Assembly: GCA_002685965.1 (NCBI GenBank)
Contig: NYZE01000005.1
Span: 1,712-65,711, forward strand
Direction: 5' to 3'
DNA from: Planctomycetota bacterium
GTDB lineage: Bacteria > Planctomycetota > UBA1135 > GCA-002748355
DNA length: 64,000 bases
The translations under genes and the position numbers were made by a program. Positions 24,119-31,275 of this stretch are shown piece after piece. How positions within the stretch are numbered: position 1 is the stretch's first letter; every line of letters starts with the position of its first letter. The notes below the pieces were generated by a model. That model worked only from the letters and a program-made list of their open reading frames with translations, was not told where the DNA came from and searched no databases.

Positions 24119-25738
24119 TCAGGGTCTGCGGCGAGTGAAGAGCATGCGGCGAGCACGGCGGGTGCTGACGCGGACGCCAGTGATTCGATCGGCATCATCG
24201 CGTTCAAACTCGAGCAAGCCACCGCGGATCGTGAACATCAGATCGCGGGTGAGCGGCTGGTGGGCGACGCCGTCGAAGGCCAGGGCGGCCTTGCGCCGGC
24301 GGACCTGGATGGTCCGATCGAGTTCGACGCTGTGGTATTGGCCTTCGTAGTCCTTCCAGGTCCTGGCCGGCATCGTGAACGGCGGCAGCGCGGTGAATCG
24401 ACGCGCGTTCTCGTTGGCGACCTGCAGCTTCAGTCCGGACACCGAGCCGTTGGCTGCGCGCAGGACTTCGCCTGCGACGGGTAGGGCCGTGCCGATCGAA
24501 CGCAACTTGTCGCCCTTGTTACTCACGAGGTCGATCTGCCAGGAGAGGGTGACTAGGCGCATCCGGTCTCGTTGTGGCGCCAGCCGCGCCAGGTCGCCGC
24601 TGTCGTCATCCACGAGGAGGGCCGGTGCATCGATCGGCTGCTTGCCGGCCGGTGCCTTCGCGGGTGGCTGGAGCCTGTCGCCGAGGAATACGGCCGCTGT
24701 CGCCATGGCGAGCCGTGACGCGTCGATGTTCGCCGCGTTGCCGAGCAACGCGACGCAGAGCCCTTGGTCAGGGAAGAAGGCACTGTGGGCGCGGAAGCCG
24801 AACGAGCTGCCCGCGTGCTGGACTACACGCACGCCGCGGTATCGCCCGACCCTGAGCCCGGCGGCGTAGTCGCCGGTCCGCGGACTGCGGCGTTGTGACC
24901 CGTCGAGCTTGGGTGCTGTCAGCATGCGGCGCACGAACGAATCGCTCGCTCCCTTCGCCTGCATGCTCTCGAGCCAGCGCAAGAGGTCCATGACGGATAT
25001 GAACAGACCTCCCGAACCCACCATGGCGAAGCGCGTGCGGTGTGGCACATACCGCTTGCCGCGTCGTTGGTGCCCGACCGCCGCCTGCGGCACGTCGTGA
25101 TCGGAGCTGTCCTTGAACACCGAGTTCTTCATGCCGTGCGGTTCGAACAGCGCCTTCGTCGCATACTCGCGCAACGAGCTCTTCGTGAGCCTGCCGATGA
25201 TGACGCCAAGCAGGAAGTAGCCGCTGTTGCAGTAGAGATAGTCCGAGCCCGGCGCGAAGTTGAGGTCACGCTGTTTGGCGAGCAACGCGACCACGTCGTC
25301 GGCGCTTTGATCGCGATCGAAGTCGAGCTTCGCGAACCTTCCCAGCTCGAAGTAGTCACGCAGCCCGCTGCGGTGATGCACGAGGTCGCCGATCGAAATG
25401 CCTCCACCAACTGCAGTGAACTCCGTCAAGTGCGTTTGCAGCGAGTCACTCCACTTCAGCTTGCCTTCTGCTTCCAGCATGACGGCGCACGCGGCGACGA
25501 ACTGCTTTGACACCGACGCTGCGTAGAAACGTGTCGTCTTGGTGATCGATCCACCCTTCTCGACGTCTGCCAAGCCGTAGCAGCCGACGTGCAAGAGCTT
25601 GCCGCCCCTGGACAGGGCGACTGCAACGCCAGGGGTCTTCTCGTTCCAGCTGGCAAAGAGCGCGTCCACCTTGGCCTCGTGCGGATCCTGCGCCGGGGCC
25701 GCGAGGGCGAGGGCGAGGGCGAGGATTGCGGTTTGCAT
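24119..25738 (-). CDS. Secreted serine hydrolase of the beta-lactamase / penicillin-binding (class C-like) family
   Basis: Track ORF to 25780; signal peptide begins at MQTAILALALALAAPAQDP (ATG 25738). SxxK motif in FYAASVSKQF. C-terminal extension of about 180 aa. Confidence 0.75.
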   Translation of the reverse strand: MQTAILALALALAAPAQDPHEAKVDALFASWNEKTPGVAVALSRGGKLLHVGCYGLADVEKGGSITKTTRFYAASVSKQFVAACAVMLEAEGKLKWSDSLQTHLTEFTAVGGGISIGDLVHHRSGLRDYFELGRFAKLDFDRDQSADDVVALLAKQRDLNFAPGSDYLYCNSGYFLLGVIIGRLTKSSLREYATKALFEPHGMKNSVFKDSSDHDVPQAAVGHQRRGKRYVPHRTRFAMVGSGGLFISVMDLLRWLESMQAKGASDSFVRRMLTAPKLDGSQRRSPRTGDYAAGLRVGRYRGVRVVQHAGSSFGFRAHSAFFPDQGLCVALLGNAANIDASRLAMATAAVFLGDRLQPPAKAPAGKQPIDAPALLVDDDSGDLARLAPQRDRMRLVTLSWQIDLVSNKGDKLRSIGTALPVAGEVLRAANGSVSGLKLQVANENARRFTALPPFTMPARTWKDYEGQYHSVELDRTIQVRRRKAALAFDGVAHQPLTRDLMFTIRGGLLEFERDDADRITGVRVSTRRARRMLFTRRRP

Positions 25739-25826: not shown

Positions 25827-25903
25827 GGGCGATTAGCTCAGCTGGTTAGAGCACCTGCTTTACACGCAGGAAGTCGGCGGTTCGAGTCCGTCATCGCCCA
25901 CCA
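25827..25903 (+). tRNA. tRNA-Val (anticodon TAC)
   Basis: GGGCGATTAGCTCAGCTGGTTAGAGCACCTGCTTTACACGCAGGAAGTCGGCGGTTCGAGTCCGTCATCGCCCACCA. Acceptor GGGCGAT/ATCGCCC, anticodon loop TT-TAC-AC, encoded CCA. Confidence 0.95.
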
Positions 25904-25905
25904 CT
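25893..25905 (+). repeat. Direct repeat copy 1 (candidate attL): ATCGCCCACCACT, last 11 nt of tRNA-Val plus 2 nt
   Basis: Exact 13-mer recurs at 28989-29001 in the same orientation. Confidence 0.7.
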
Positions 25906-26086
25906 AGACCTTTGTCGATTCCGACTTTACGGAAACCCGCTCGAGGCGAGCGGCGCGACACACACCGGAGGCGATGGACTTGGTCCACTTCCAGGAGCGT
26001 GACGCGATGAGCAAGACGAAGAAGAAGAGCAGCAACGACGACGTGCCCGAGCTGCGCGTGAAACGACGGCCGCCCAATAAGAAGAC

Positions 26087-26680
26087 GTGCGAGAACCGCG
26101 ACACCTGCTACGCCACTTCAACGGCATCAAGGTCTGGTTCGGGAGAGCAGACGATCCCGGAACCAGGAAGACCTTCGACGCCTACCTGGCGCGGTGGCTC
26201 GCGAACGATCGCCGCTCGCTCGAGGAGCACGAAGACGACGAGCACCTCACAGTCGAGGAGCTCGTCGACCGCTTCCAGGCGTGGGCCGATGCCTACTACG
26301 TCAAGGACGGCGAGCCGACCCGCGAAGCCAGCATCATCGAGTTCGCATGCAAGCCGCTGACCATGCTCTATGGCACGGAATCCGCGGCGACGTTCGGGCC
26401 CCAAGCACTACGCGCGGTCCGCGAGGACATGATCCGGCGCAAGTGGTCCCGCAAGAACATCAACCGACAGGTCGGCCGCGTGCGACGGGTCTTCAAGTGG
26501 GCCGTCGAACGTGAGCTGGTTCCGCCGAGCATCTCGCACGCACTCGCGTGCGTTGCCCCACTCAAGCGAGGACGAACCGAAGCCAAAGAGCGCAAGCCGG
26601 TCGCGCCGATCGCGTGGGCCGACGTGGAAGCGGTGTTGCCCTGCGTCTCGAACGAGGTCCGCGCCATCGAGCTGGGGTAG
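26087..26680 (+). pseudogene. Tyrosine recombinase / phage integrase, N-terminal (arm plus core-binding) half only; catalytic domain missing
   Basis: 197 codons from GTG: REPRHLLRHFNGIKVWFGRADDPGTRKTFDAYLARWLAN... AYYVKDGEPT ... VGRVRRVFKWAVERELVPPS ... VRAIELG, then stop. The ORF ends where the catalytic domain (LTGxRxxE, R-H-R-Y residues) should begin, 9 bp from the convergent astacin stop. Upstream frame (MSKTKKKSSNDDVPELRVKRRPPNKK, from about 26007) may be a frameshifted leader. Confidence 0.7.
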
Positions 26681-26688
26681 TGCGCGAC

Positions 26689-28929
26689 TCATCGCGCGAT
26701 CGTCAACGGCGCCGCGTTGGTCGCGAACTGGAGACCGGCACCGAGCACCGCGAACGAGTGGTAGAGAGTCAACGGTCGCACGGCCTGGGCAACCGTGAGC
26801 GGCATCGACCATGTCGCCGTTGCGCGTCCGAGGCTGTCGAGGCGCGGGATCGCGGGGTTCAGCAGAGCGCCGGGCGCCGCGAGCAGCAGGCTCGTGTACG
26901 CGTCGAACTGCACCGGCAAGCGGACCTTGCCCGCCAGGACACCTGGACGCGTGCCGGTAAAGCTGCCGAGCAGGACGGCGAAGCCTCCGGCATGGACAGC
27001 ACCGGCCTCGATCTTCATCTGCACGGTCGACCAACTGCGCGTTCGATCCAAGACGAGGCTCGGCGCGAGCGCCGGTCGCCCCGAGATCAGATGCACTGCG
27101 CCCGCATCACTGGCTGCCCCTGCTGCGCCAACGGCGAAGTCCGGGGTGCCATCGCCGTTCCCATCACCACACCCAGCGACGGTGCCGCCGAACTCGCCCT
27201 TGTCTGCGATGCCGGTGAAGCGCGCCAGGGTGTAACCGTCCCGACTGGAAAAGACGTAGGCGATGCCGCGGTGCCCGGTGGCGACATTGGCGCGCGGTGC
27301 GCCGACCACCAAGTCGGGCCGGCCATCGCCATCGCTGTCGGCAATCCCACCGACACTGGTGCCGAACCGATCGCCGAGGCTTTCGCCCTCCAGGAGCAAC
27401 AGCTCCGTCAGGTCCTTGCCCGACAACAAACGTGCCCGACCCCGACCTGCGGTCTGTGGCGCGCCAGCGATCACGTCATCGACGCCATCGTTGTTGGCGT
27501 CGCCGGCGTTGGCGATCGAAGTGCCGAGCGAGTCCCCGATCGCAGCACCACGGCGGCGCCGCAGCACCGTACCGTCGCGCCCGGATAACAGATACACCGA
27601 GCCGTCAGCGGCGAGGGCACGCCCGGGTTCGCCCGCTGCGACATCGGGCACGCCGTCGGTATTGCCATCCCCGATGATCGCGACTCCGGTGCCGAGTTCG
27701 AACAGGGAGACACCGGTCCGGCGCCACAACTCGGCGCCGGTCTTCCCCGAGTAGGCGATGACCCGGCCCGCGCTGGGAAAGTTGCCGACCGCGAGCGGCG
27801 CGCCGACCACGACGTCGGGCACCTTGTCGGCATCGAGGTCCACGCCACCGGCGGCCGCGTGACCGAAGCTCGGCCCGCTGGCGGCGTCGCGCAGCGTGCG
27901 CAGCACTCGTGGCCCTGACGCGTCGCGCAGCCACTTGCCCGAGACGACCTCGACCAATCCGTTGCCGCCCACCAGAAGGTCGTCGATCGAGTCGCCGTTG
28001 ACGTCGCCTGCACTCGCCAATGCCACGCCGAGGCCGTTGCCAGCCGCTGCGCCGGTGAAGCATCTGAGCGCCGCACCGTTGGCCCCTGACCAGACCGTGA
28101 CACGGCCGGCGTCCTTGCCGCCGCCGTCGTCACCGGGAGCGCCGCCCGCGAAGTCCGGCACCTTGTCGCCGTCCACGTCGTGCAGTCCCACCACCGCCGC
28201 ACCCAGCTGATCCCCGATGCTTGCGCGGCCATGCTCGAACAACTGACCGACCTGGGGCCTGGGGTACAGGACGTTCATCCGTCGCACGTCGAGCGCGCTC
28301 AAATAGATGCGCTGGCCGAGCAGCGGCGTGTACTTCTTGTCCCACGGTGGCCGCACCGTCATCGTCGGCTGGGCGTTGCTCGAACACTGGAAGCGGTGGT
28401 AGTGCATGATCGACTCGAAGTCGTACGGCACGTCGAACAGCTCCACATTCGTCAAGATCCTGTACTGGCTCGCGCAGTTGATGTTGGCGCTGTGCACCTG
28501 GATGTAGGTGTCGCGATCGGCACGCATGTGCTCGTGCCAGAACCCGACCGCGTGACAGATCTCGTGCATGATCGTGTACTTGCGTTCCCAGTTCGCGATG
28601 TTGATGAACTGCTGACCGCCTGTGCGTCCGATCGAAGAGCTGTTGTTGCCGGAGTTGCGGATGTGGATGTAGGCCGCCTCGGTCGTGCGCGGGATGAAGC
28701 GCAGCCCCGACACCTTCTCCCACGATCGCATCGAGTGCAGCGACCGGGCGTGGTTCTGCGGGTTGACGGCCGGATCGATGACGAAGTGCACGATGCCGTT
28801 GGGCCAGGGCCTGCCCGCCCACGTCGCGGGGCCGGGGTCGATGTGGATGCAGCCATCGACGCATCTGGCGCCCTGTGCCGGCACCGTGACTGGCAGAAGG
28901 GCCAGGACCAGCAGGGAGAGAGGGCGCAT
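26689..28929 (-). CDS. Secreted astacin-family (M12A) zinc metalloprotease fused to FG-GAP / integrin-alpha-like repeats
   Basis: 746 aa. Signal peptide MRPLSLLVLALLPVTVPAQG. Full astacin signature HEICHAVGFWHEHMRADRD and Met-turn SIMHY. At least six FG-GAP/Ca-binding units follow (DVDGDKVPDFAGGAPG, GDVNGDSIDDLLVGG, DLDADKVPDVVVGAP, GDGNTDGVPDVAAGEPG, GDANNDGVDDVIAGAP, DSDGDGRPDLVVGAP, GDGNGDGTPDFAVGAAG), then a C-terminal domain of about 130 aa. Confidence 0.85.
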   Translation of the reverse strand: MRPLSLLVLALLPVTVPAQGARCVDGCIHIDPGPATWAGRPWPNGIVHFVIDPAVNPQNHARSLHSMRSWEKVSGLRFIPRTTEAAYIHIRNSGNNSSSIGRTGGQQFINIANWERKYTIMHEICHAVGFWHEHMRADRDTYIQVHSANINCASQYRILTNVELFDVPYDFESIMHYHRFQCSSNAQPTMTVRPPWDKKYTPLLGQRIYLSALDVRRMNVLYPRPQVGQLFEHGRASIGDQLGAAVVGLHDVDGDKVPDFAGGAPGDDGGGKDAGRVTVWSGANGAALRCFTGAAAGNGLGVALASAGDVNGDSIDDLLVGGNGLVEVVSGKWLRDASGPRVLRTLRDAASGPSFGHAAAGGVDLDADKVPDVVVGAPLAVGNFPSAGRVIAYSGKTGAELWRRTGVSLFELGTGVAIIGDGNTDGVPDVAAGEPGRALAADGSVYLLSGRDGTVLRRRRGAAIGDSLGTSIANAGDANNDGVDDVIAGAPQTAGRGRARLLSGKDLTELLLLEGESLGDRFGTSVGGIADSDGDGRPDLVVGAPRANVATGHRGIAYVFSSRDGYTLARFTGIADKGEFGGTVAGCGDGNGDGTPDFAVGAAGAASDAGAVHLISGRPALAPSLVLDRTRSWSTVQMKIEAGAVHAGGFAVLLGSFTGTRPGVLAGKVRLPVQFDAYTSLLLAAPGALLNPAIPRLDSLGRATATWSMPLTVAQAVRPLTLYHSFAVLGAGLQFATNAAPLTIAR

Positions 28930-28988
28930 CCGCCCATCATAGACGGGTTACTGCACGAGGATGTCCAGCGCATCGCCGGCGCTTCCAG

Positions 28989-29001
28989 TATCGCCCACCA
29001 C
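28989..29001 (+). repeat. Direct repeat copy 2 (candidate attR): ATCGCCCACCACT
   Basis: Exact copy of 25893-25905. Lies in the 193-bp spacer between the astacin start (28929) and the HIT start (29123). Confidence 0.7.
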
Positions 29002-29122
29002 TCGGTGCGAATCCGACATCGCGCGAGTTGCGCGCAGCGTGAGGGAGGTGGTCAGGGTTTTTCGAGAGCTGCCCACCGGGGTGGGTGTGTGGCGTTCCAT
29101 GTGGCGGTCCTATGCTGACCAT

Positions 29123-30303: not shown

Positions 30304-31275
30304 TTACTTCGCGAGCTTGGTGCGCAGCCAAGCGACGACTTCCCTTGCTAGCTCGAGGTGTCCCGCGGCGTTCGGATGTGGATCGCTCGGAGCAACTGCA
30401 TAGCGGGCCATGTAGTCAGTGTGGTCGATAAACGCCTCGATGTGCGGGATGCCGCGCGTGCGCGTCGCTTCGGCGATGCCCGGTGCAGCGGGCTTGCCCT
30501 TCTCGCCGATCGTGTCGATCAGCGCGAACTGGATGTCGCCACACAGCGTCTTGAACAGCTCGAGGACGTCGGCGACGTGTTTCACGCCGCTCGCAGTCAG
30601 GTCGTGTCCGATCCAGTATTCCGGCCGAACGCGGCGCCATCGGTCCAGTCCGGTCTGCGCGAAACGGCCGAGGTACGCCGTGCGAACCCACGACGGCAGC
30701 AGGACGCGCCGCTCTGTGGCCTCGGCCAGTTTGTCGACAGCGGGCACGTCGTTGTTGACCAAGGTCAGGAGTACCAGGTCCGGCTGGAAAGCCAGGCCGC
30801 GCTCCTTGAGGAAGAGGTAGCTGTTGACGAGGTTCCAGCCGGGGACGCCGGCGTTGATGACTTCGACTCGCGGATGGCCAGCGCGCAGCGTGTGATCGCG
30901 CAACTGCCGCTCCACGACACGAGGAAAGGCGTCTTTCTCGGCGACGCCGAAGCCGAATGCGATCGAATCCCCGAGCACGAGGATCCGGTACGTGTCCGGC
31001 GGCTTGGCGATGGGTGTCTCACGGTTGCGCATGCCGTGACTGCCGATGACGATCTCGTGGCCGAGGTAGCTCGCGCGTCCACCCGGCACGAGTTCGAGGC
31101 CGGCCTTGCCATTGCGGATGACCTTGCCCGCGAGCGCTTCGCGCTGCGCGACATCCTCGGCGCCGAGCGGGTCGAGCGCGCGTAGCAAGACCTCAGCCAA
31201 CGCTAGCGCGACGAACGTCGCGATTGTCGCCGCGAGCAAACGCTTCAGCAGGCGCTTGGTCTTCCCGGTCGCCAC
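30304..31275 (-). CDS. SGNH/GDSL-family hydrolase (esterase / acyl-hydrolase), membrane-anchored or secreted
   Basis: 323 aa. N-terminal TM/signal LLAATIATFVALALAEVLL; block I ILVLGDSIAFGFG. Confidence 0.75.
   Translation of the reverse strand: MATGKTKRLLKRLLAATIATFVALALAEVLLRALDPLGAEDVAQREALAGKVIRNGKAGLELVPGGRASYLGHEIVIGSHGMRNRETPIAKPPDTYRILVLGDSIAFGFGVAEKDAFPRVVERQLRDHTLRAGHPRVEVINAGVPGWNLVNSYLFLKERGLAFQPDLVLLTLVNNDVPAVDKLAEATERRVLLPSWVRTAYLGRFAQTGLDRWRRVRPEYWIGHDLTASGVKHVADVLELFKTLCGDIQFALIDTIGEKGKPAAPGIAEATRTRGIPHIEAFIDHTDYMARYAVAPSDPHPNAAGHLELAREVVAWLRTKLAK

Follow-up and report, generated by a model that had tools for sequence, protein, structure and literature searches.

A probable degenerate islet at a tRNA-Val gene of an uncultured marine planctomycete, with an integrase stump and one astacin/FG-GAP gene

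Degenerate prophages and island remnants with truncated integrases, such as the cryptic elements of Escherichia coli K-12, are found at tRNA genes. A locus that resembles them lies in a 64-kb stretch of DNA from a marine Planctomycetota bacterium (GenBank assembly GCA_002685965.1, contig NYZE01000005.1, positions 1,712 to 65,711 of the forward strand), referred to here in its entirety as the window. It comprises an intact tRNA-Val gene, the N-terminal half of an integrase gene and a single gene encoding a protein of the astacin/FG-GAP type, and it is delimited by a 13-bp direct repeat. The locus is probably a degenerate, immobilised and fixed islet at the tRNA gene (tDNA), with the astacin/FG-GAP gene as its cargo; at minimum, it is an integrase scar at tRNA-Val. 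The features shared with the cryptic remnants are decay by deletion, an integrase pseudogene beside a tRNA gene, the retention of few genes, immobility and vertical inheritance. It differs from them in belonging to an uncultured marine planctomycete lineage without close database relatives, and in having decayed almost to the one-gene minimum.

The signature of tDNA islands, as set out in the Islander paper (Hudson, Lau & Williams 2015, PMC4383910), is an intact tDNA together with a displaced fragment. Three crossover subsites were described there, namely the anticodon loop, the T loop and the T/acceptor junction, and both damaged fragments and tandem arrays are on record (PMC4383910). The planctomycete locus is similar to these islands in that a 3’ fragment in the same orientation lies downstream of an intact tRNA gene, with integrase sequence between the two, a length of more than 2 kb and a fragment that lies outside coding sequence. 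Unlike them, it contains an N-terminal integrase stump, and a Pfam-based integrase filter would reject it. Furthermore, its fragment measures 13 nt, and with a repeat-to-repeat interval of 3.1 kb and a single gene it is near the lower limit of the Islander length range (2-200 kb).

The tRNA-Val(TAC) gene (25827-25903, + strand) is intact and has an encoded CCA (ARAGORN; Rfam RF00005, 71.6 bits). It would represent the integration target, regenerated at the left attachment site (attL). Its last 11 nt plus 2 further nt form the proximal copy of the repeat, ATCGCCCACCACT (25893-25905, +), which corresponds to the 3’ strand of the acceptor stem, the discriminator, CCA and the 2 additional nt. This copy starts exactly at the junction of the T stem and the acceptor stem, and since that junction is one of the Islander crossover subsites, a 13-bp block is within known behaviour. 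The distal copy (28990-29002, +) is the putative attR, to which the 3’ end of the original tRNA-Val gene would have been displaced. The window holds exactly two copies of ATCGCCCACCACT when up to one mismatch is allowed, both in direct orientation, and 3 nt upstream of the 13-mer three further bases agree (TCCnnnATCGCCCACCACT, 16/19). An exact repeat of the tRNA 3’ end in the same orientation had been claimed in a preliminary description of this DNA and is confirmed, and within the window its word is not dispersed; the claimed position for the first copy is correct, and that for the second (28989-29001) is off by one base.

Both sides of the locus carry spacers without the GC periodicity of coding sequence. 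The proximal one, from the tRNA gene to the original integrase start (25906-26006, +), is presumably a remnant of an attP arm, and members of the same integrase family also begin about 100 nt past their tRNA. The distal spacer (28930-28989, 60 bp) separates the start codon of the astacin gene from the distal repeat, which is located 60 bp upstream of that start (28929, - strand) and 120 bp upstream of the start of the neighbouring HIT gene (29123). The GC content by codon position is 0.61/0.61/0.70 across 28930-29122, compared with 0.74/0.41/0.85 in the HIT gene. Because the spacer lacks this periodicity, unlike the HIT gene, the distal 13-mer is assigned to non-coding DNA, as had been proposed; stretches of this sort are few. 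To the right of each copy of the 13-mer, GATTCCGAC (25918-25926) and GAATCCGAC (29011-29019) agree at 9/10 positions when the preceding C is included; they are found at differing offsets of 13 and 9 nt (p~0.08), and may be core-type sites of the integrase or chance matches.

The 13-bp repeat is real and unlikely by chance, if not astronomically so. The shuffle expectation for ATCGCCCACCACT is 0.09 matches with one mismatch or none. When random pseudo-tRNA ends are drawn in the window and an exact direct repeat of at least 13 nt is required to end between -3 and +5 of that end and to recur downstream, the chance of success is 0.26% within 3.5 kb (P=0.0026) and 0.83% within 10 kb (P=0.0083), values that become 0.45% and 1.4%, respectively, once the terminal constraint is dropped. 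Nothing comparable is seen at the window’s other two tRNAs. The first estimate, of about one occurrence per 1000 windows, was right with regard to rarity, but its figure was too extreme, as P lies at 0.0026-0.0083 when offsets are allowed.

Downstream of the tRNA gene, a 197-codon open reading frame (ORF; 26087-26680, +) corresponds by homology to the N-terminal (SAM-like/core-binding) half of an integrase. No Pfam or NCBIfam model matches this ORF, and PF00589 is not detected in it. It matches PHROG 1 ‘integrase’ (E=3.7e-7), and along about 185 aa it is 35-50% identical to the N-terminal half of proteins whose PF00589 domain is C-terminal; as judged from these similarities, it is the remnant of a tyrosine integrase. 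The ORF ends in ‘VRAIELG*’, directly ahead of the catalytic Arg of the ‘LTGxRPxE’ motif in homologues, and the stump does not contain any of the catalytic residues (R-K-H-R-H-Y). A relocated catalytic domain was looked for, and no similarity to one was found anywhere in the window. The gene does stop where its catalytic domain should begin, before the first catalytic Arg, as had been stated from the sequence; the accompanying term ‘beheaded’ fits a truncated fragment, but it is the tail, the catalytic domain, that is missing and not the head.

The stop codons of the integrase (26678-26680) and of the convergent astacin gene (26689-26691) are separated by 8 nt, which upholds their reported adjacency and corrects the reported gap of 9 bp. 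The deletion junction is placed at 26675-26688, between the end of the integrase homology (26674) and the astacin stop codon, which starts at 26689. Since the homology ends at 26674 and there is no catalytic domain in the window, about 600 bp of the integrase, and whatever followed it, must have been deleted. A second lesion, absent from the preliminary description, is a 1-nt frameshift near 26117. The original 5’ end of the gene (26007-26117, +) starts at ATG 26007, now out of frame, and is recognised by a switch in the frame with high GC content at third codon positions (GC3): this value is 0.89 in the frame of ATG 26007 as far as about 26117, and 0.84 further downstream in the frame of the 197-codon ORF. 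The translated junction (…RRPPNKKTCENRDTCYAT|FNGIKVWFGR…) aligns by eye with the N-termini of homologues. Because the coding frame of ATG 26007 differs from that of the downstream ORF, the stump is considered a pseudogene with a 1-nt frameshift. The absence of a catalytic domain from the window and the frameshift both sustain the view that the element is immobilised.

Full-length homologues of the stump measure 416 aa at the median and carry PF00589 in their C-terminal half, with the catalytic residues in the motifs LTGxRPxE, HKTE, LRHxxAT, LGH and YAE. Metagenome contigs, scanned by alignment, yielded 282 relatives, 80 of which were kept for counting adjacent tRNAs. A same-strand tRNA gene lies upstream of the match at 51/80 of these loci, mostly 175-195 nt from its end to the match, compared with 214 nt in the window, and ten specificities are represented (Arg, Pro, Gly, Met, Val, Ala, Asn, Asp, Lys and Thr). 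These include tRNA-Val, for which the preliminary description had suggested checking the full-length homologues. Given this adjacency in 51/80 homologous loci, the attL half of the islet reading is solid, and the arrangement, with the stump of a tRNA-targeting integrase behind a tRNA gene, can be regarded as secure.

This family of ~416-aa integrases (loci L019-L118) resembles the stump in its N-terminal 190 aa, which are 35-48% identical, and in its location downstream of a same-strand tRNA. Unlike in the stump, the catalytic domain of its members is complete (R, K, HxxR, H, Y), and unlike the islet, their elements are mostly larger than 10 kb, with anticodon-loop-type tDNA fragments of about 45-56 bp where these are readable. 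The contexts of the integrase’s closest homologues in the protein database (P0004, P0007, P0010 and P0013) gave no convincing adjacent tRNA in the three loci with DNA (L012-L014), where ARAGORN made a single call, within the queried integrase gene itself; this result is superseded by the larger metagenome scan. The integrases of L012, L013, L014 and the P0007 contig consist of an N-terminal ORF and a separate short PF00589 ORF, a split that probably reflects indel errors in assembly rather than biology. Additionally, several family members are themselves truncated, at 199-298 aa (L025/26, L070, L086, L094 and L030).

The putative cargo gene (26689-28929, -) encodes a 746-aa secreted astacin (M12A) metalloprotease with an FG-GAP beta-propeller. 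The assignment is supported by PF01400 (133.9 bits, cut-off 22.5) and PF01839 (94.8 bits), so that the contents given for the islet, an integrase fragment and a 746-aa astacin/FG-GAP gene, are confirmed by Pfam and homology. A zinc motif, HEICHAVGFWHEHMRADRD (HExxHxxGxxHxxxRxDR type), and the Met-turn SIMHY (SxMHY) are visible in the translation, which also has at least five FG-GAP repeats and an N-terminal hydrophobic leader, a likely signal peptide. The zinc motif and Met-turn of its astacin catalytic domain are features in common with Legionella LegP (NF045530); the protein scores 122 bits against the LegP model, far under the equivalog cut-off of 300, and in this respect it is unlike LegP. 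Its architecture is that of a whole Planctomycetota-type FG-GAP protein of ~560 aa with an astacin domain at the N-terminus. Residues 240-746 align end-to-end with two complete FG-GAP proteins of 561-562 aa (P0098 and P0101, with names from Planctomycetota or JGI), and for this reason the 3’ end of the gene is taken to be intact, with the deletion just outside it; the gene is complete at both ends.

Among the matches examined from two large database searches, no second astacin-FG-GAP protein was present. An exhaustive search for relatives of the astacin domain, in pursuit of its origin, yielded at most 49% identity, other and mixed partner domains, those of the best relatives being C-terminal, and one named Planctomycetota match, and it was uninformative on transfer. 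The protein itself is annotated in the metagenome-assembled genome (MAG) of a marine Planctomycetes bacterium, under the locus tag CMJ85_00735. Scans for regulatory signals found no promoter-like site, with no sigma-70-like consensus in the 60-bp spacer 28930-28989, and four terminator-like matches, which is no excess over shuffled sequences (mean 2.7).

The islet is present throughout the species. Eleven public contigs of the species, from Tara, other metagenomes and MAGs and from different samples, are collinear with the window and 99.8-99.98% identical to it; the islet is found in 11/11, and every contig that covers both repeat copies has them at an unchanged spacing. As all 11 contigs carry it, the islet is considered fixed in the species, in agreement with the claim that it had fixed the protease in the chromosome. 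The astacin protein is 100% identical in ten contigs and its gene lacks any variable site across about ten, a set in which the integrase stump has one nonsynonymous variable site. With regard to the tRNA gene, position 27 (25853), between the D stem and the anticodon stem, is A in the window and G in all eight other conspecific contigs that cover the site. The last 25 nt of another contig, L009 (window 25848-25872), fall inside the tRNA and contain six differences, including a compensatory change from G-C to C-G in the anticodon stem; this end is probably an assembly-graph join with the tRNA-Val of another organism at a shared 31-mer.

No syntenic relative of the locus was found in the collections. 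A search for synteny via the upstream beta-lactamase-like gene gave no relative among genome contigs, and the best non-self protein match to that gene, 46% identical, is on a 2.2-kb contig without a tRNA. The 35-nt 3’ pattern of tRNA-Val recurs in four genomes without synteny to the locus, namely one Planctomycetota MAG (L016) and three from Chloroflexota or Dehalococcoidia; L016 has unrelated neighbours and no integrase downstream of the tRNA.

These observations may be combined in the following scenario. An element with a tyrosine integrase, from a tRNA-targeting family that is frequent in Planctomycetota-like metagenomic contigs, would have entered the 3’ part of tRNA-Val(TAC). The tRNA would have been regenerated at 25827-25903 (attL), and its former 3’ end would have come to lie at 28990-29002 (attR). 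A deletion inside the element would have taken the ~600 bp of the catalytic domain and all else up to 1-14 nt beyond the astacin stop codon, possibly with selection for the protease setting the boundary of the deletion, and the 1-nt frameshift would have further disabled the stump. The resulting 3.1-kb islet is unable to excise and has become fixed in the species. The short tDNA fragment needs explaining, and the candidates are a crossover of the junction type, another deletion, on the side of the promoter, or a tandem island of greater age. The attR and cargo side of the islet is probable: the 13-mer would be attR, and the astacin gene would have arrived with an element, either that of the integrase stump or an older one in tandem.

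Several observations weigh against the islet as just outlined. The genes of the islet do not stand out by composition: their GC3 values, 0.83 and 0.84, are within the 0.73-0.91 of the window’s genes, and their codon-bias z scores, -0.8 and +0.3, are typical of the window. The GC profile, GC3 and Karlin codon bias with simulation all show no deviation at the islet, and the check for foreign composition put forward in the preliminary description thus failed. Unusual composition is an auxiliary mark of tDNA islands and not part of their definition. The FG-GAP module of the astacin protein is like that of ordinary Planctomycetota proteins, and the astacin ATG is preceded by only 60 bp of putative element DNA, a spacer that would need to hold the promoter if the gene were cargo. 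No astacin occurs in other elements of the family, among 100 loci (L019-L118), and the single FG-GAP-like match at these loci (L082) is upstream of its tRNA, outside the element. Furthermore, the predicted empty-site junction, TCCGTCATCGCCCACCACTCGGTG, had 0 matches in metagenome contigs.

The length of the repeat also counts against the islet. The readable tDNA fragments of the family are about 45-56 bp long and of the anticodon-loop type, 3-4 times longer than the 13 bp of the window. L035 has a 48-bp copy of tRNA-Asn (-45..+2) 7.2 kb downstream. L094 is a tandem array with 56 bp of tRNA-Pro (-53..+2) repeated, where an intact tRNA-Pro is followed by 7.6 kb, the 56-bp fragment and then the integrase; in both loci, the block of identity ends 2 nt past the ARAGORN tRNA end, as it does in the window. 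In L099, the closest relative (48% identity), a tRNA 3’ fragment of roughly 45 nt by eye is found directly upstream of the integrase; by eye it is like tRNA-Arg(CCG), with its start in the anticodon loop. A scan of IMG/VR added 20 loci, mostly trimmed at the integrase, which contributed the attP-like L099 and no example of a short fragment. As far as the family has been sampled (three readable members), the 13-bp block is atypically short. The distal copy could have been longer before decay, and CGGCGCTTCCAGT, located 5 nt to its left, agrees with the T-arm sequence CGGCGGTTCGAGT at 11/13 positions; when the tRNA is aligned permissively, with gaps, to the 65 nt on the left, the similarity reaches further. 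Nevertheless, the ~50 nt to the left of the distal copy are only weakly tRNA-like (p=0.02-0.1 versus random genomic segments), the Rfam tRNA model has no match at the distal site (E up to 1), and a uniform decay to about 62% identity would not spare 13/13 bases; a longer, decayed attR was therefore rejected as evidence. Since the tests for foreignness failed, the spacer measures 60 bp, the family fragments are long and no empty site was found, it is the repeat by itself that marks the astacin gene as cargo.

The chief competing explanation is that the astacin gene is native, in which case 25904-26688 alone would be element DNA and the distal 13-mer a coincidence. A single deletion would then suffice, running from mid-integrase through the rest of the element, the true attR and some chromosome to a point just past the astacin stop. 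The astacin gene looks native in GC3 and codon usage and has a Planctomycetota-type FG-GAP module, both in line with such an origin, as are the 193-bp spacer between the astacin and HIT genes, which resembles an ordinary divergent intergenic region, the difference between family fragments of ~45-56 bp and the 13 bp seen here, and the lack of a pseudo-tRNA signal at the distal site (Rfam). However, composition does not settle whether the astacin gene is cargo, because the integrase remnant, which undoubtedly stems from an element, is equally native-like and so does not discriminate. Moreover, a native gene requires a coincidence of P~0.003-0.008 that falls in non-coding DNA and starts exactly at the stem junction of the tRNA; overall, a native origin seems unlikely, with a minor yet appreciable chance of being correct. 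A tandem array is a variant of the islet in which the 13-mer would be the attR of an older island of the T/acceptor-junction type that brought the astacin gene, and the stump would come from a younger element of the anticodon-loop type at the same tRNA. One deletion, removing the rest of the younger element, its ~50-bp fragment and the remainder of the older island, would explain the short repeat along with the long family fragments, and such arrays occur both in the integrase family (L094) and in the Islander records, with 125 cases (PMC4383910). The sequence fits a single element equally well, and an array here is rather doubtful, at a somewhat smaller chance than the native gene. When this variant is counted in, an islet of one kind or the other is the likely explanation.

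Two further explanations have been considered. It is very unlikely that the islet is no passive debris and that selection drove a domestication in which deletions on both sides left one gene, the astacin-FG-GAP fusion, as a species-wide secreted protease or adhesin, while the 197-codon ORF may persist as a DNA-binding protein; if this were true, its targets might be the convergent gene next to it or the att remnants. Still harder to credit is that the 13-mer is a functional or dispersed motif, either a regulatory site or a member of a repeat family, unrelated to integration; anything other than an islet or a native gene has at best a very small chance. No support for such a motif was found apart from the 9/10 match of GATTCCGAC and GAATCCGAC, which stand at different offsets from their copies (p~0.08), and the 13-mer has two copies in 64 kb, no covering repeat family and no Rfam match.

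Elsewhere in the window, a 39-bp segment (31226-31264) of the GDSL-lipase gene (-) is subject to a tandem duplication that is polymorphic in the species; L002 and L003 have two copies of the segment (336 versus 323 aa). A (GAGGGC)n hexamer run at 25700-25727 corresponds to LALALALA in the N-terminal leader, a presumed signal peptide, of the beta-lactamase-like protein (-).

Taken as an islet at tRNA-Val, the locus is an ordinary genome scar of a well-known kind, involves no new mechanism and leaves current views on the formation and decay of tDNA islands unchallenged. For annotation, it identifies an integrase pseudogene and a scar of horizontal transfer in a lineage of uncultured marine planctomycetes, and it flags the astacin/FG-GAP protease as a trait that was possibly acquired and then fixed. 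The integrase family of ~416 aa to which the stump belongs is large and uncharacterised, and the present account is the first description of it as a tRNA-targeting family in Planctomycetota-like contigs; the outline given here could seed the mapping of islands in such metagenomic contigs.

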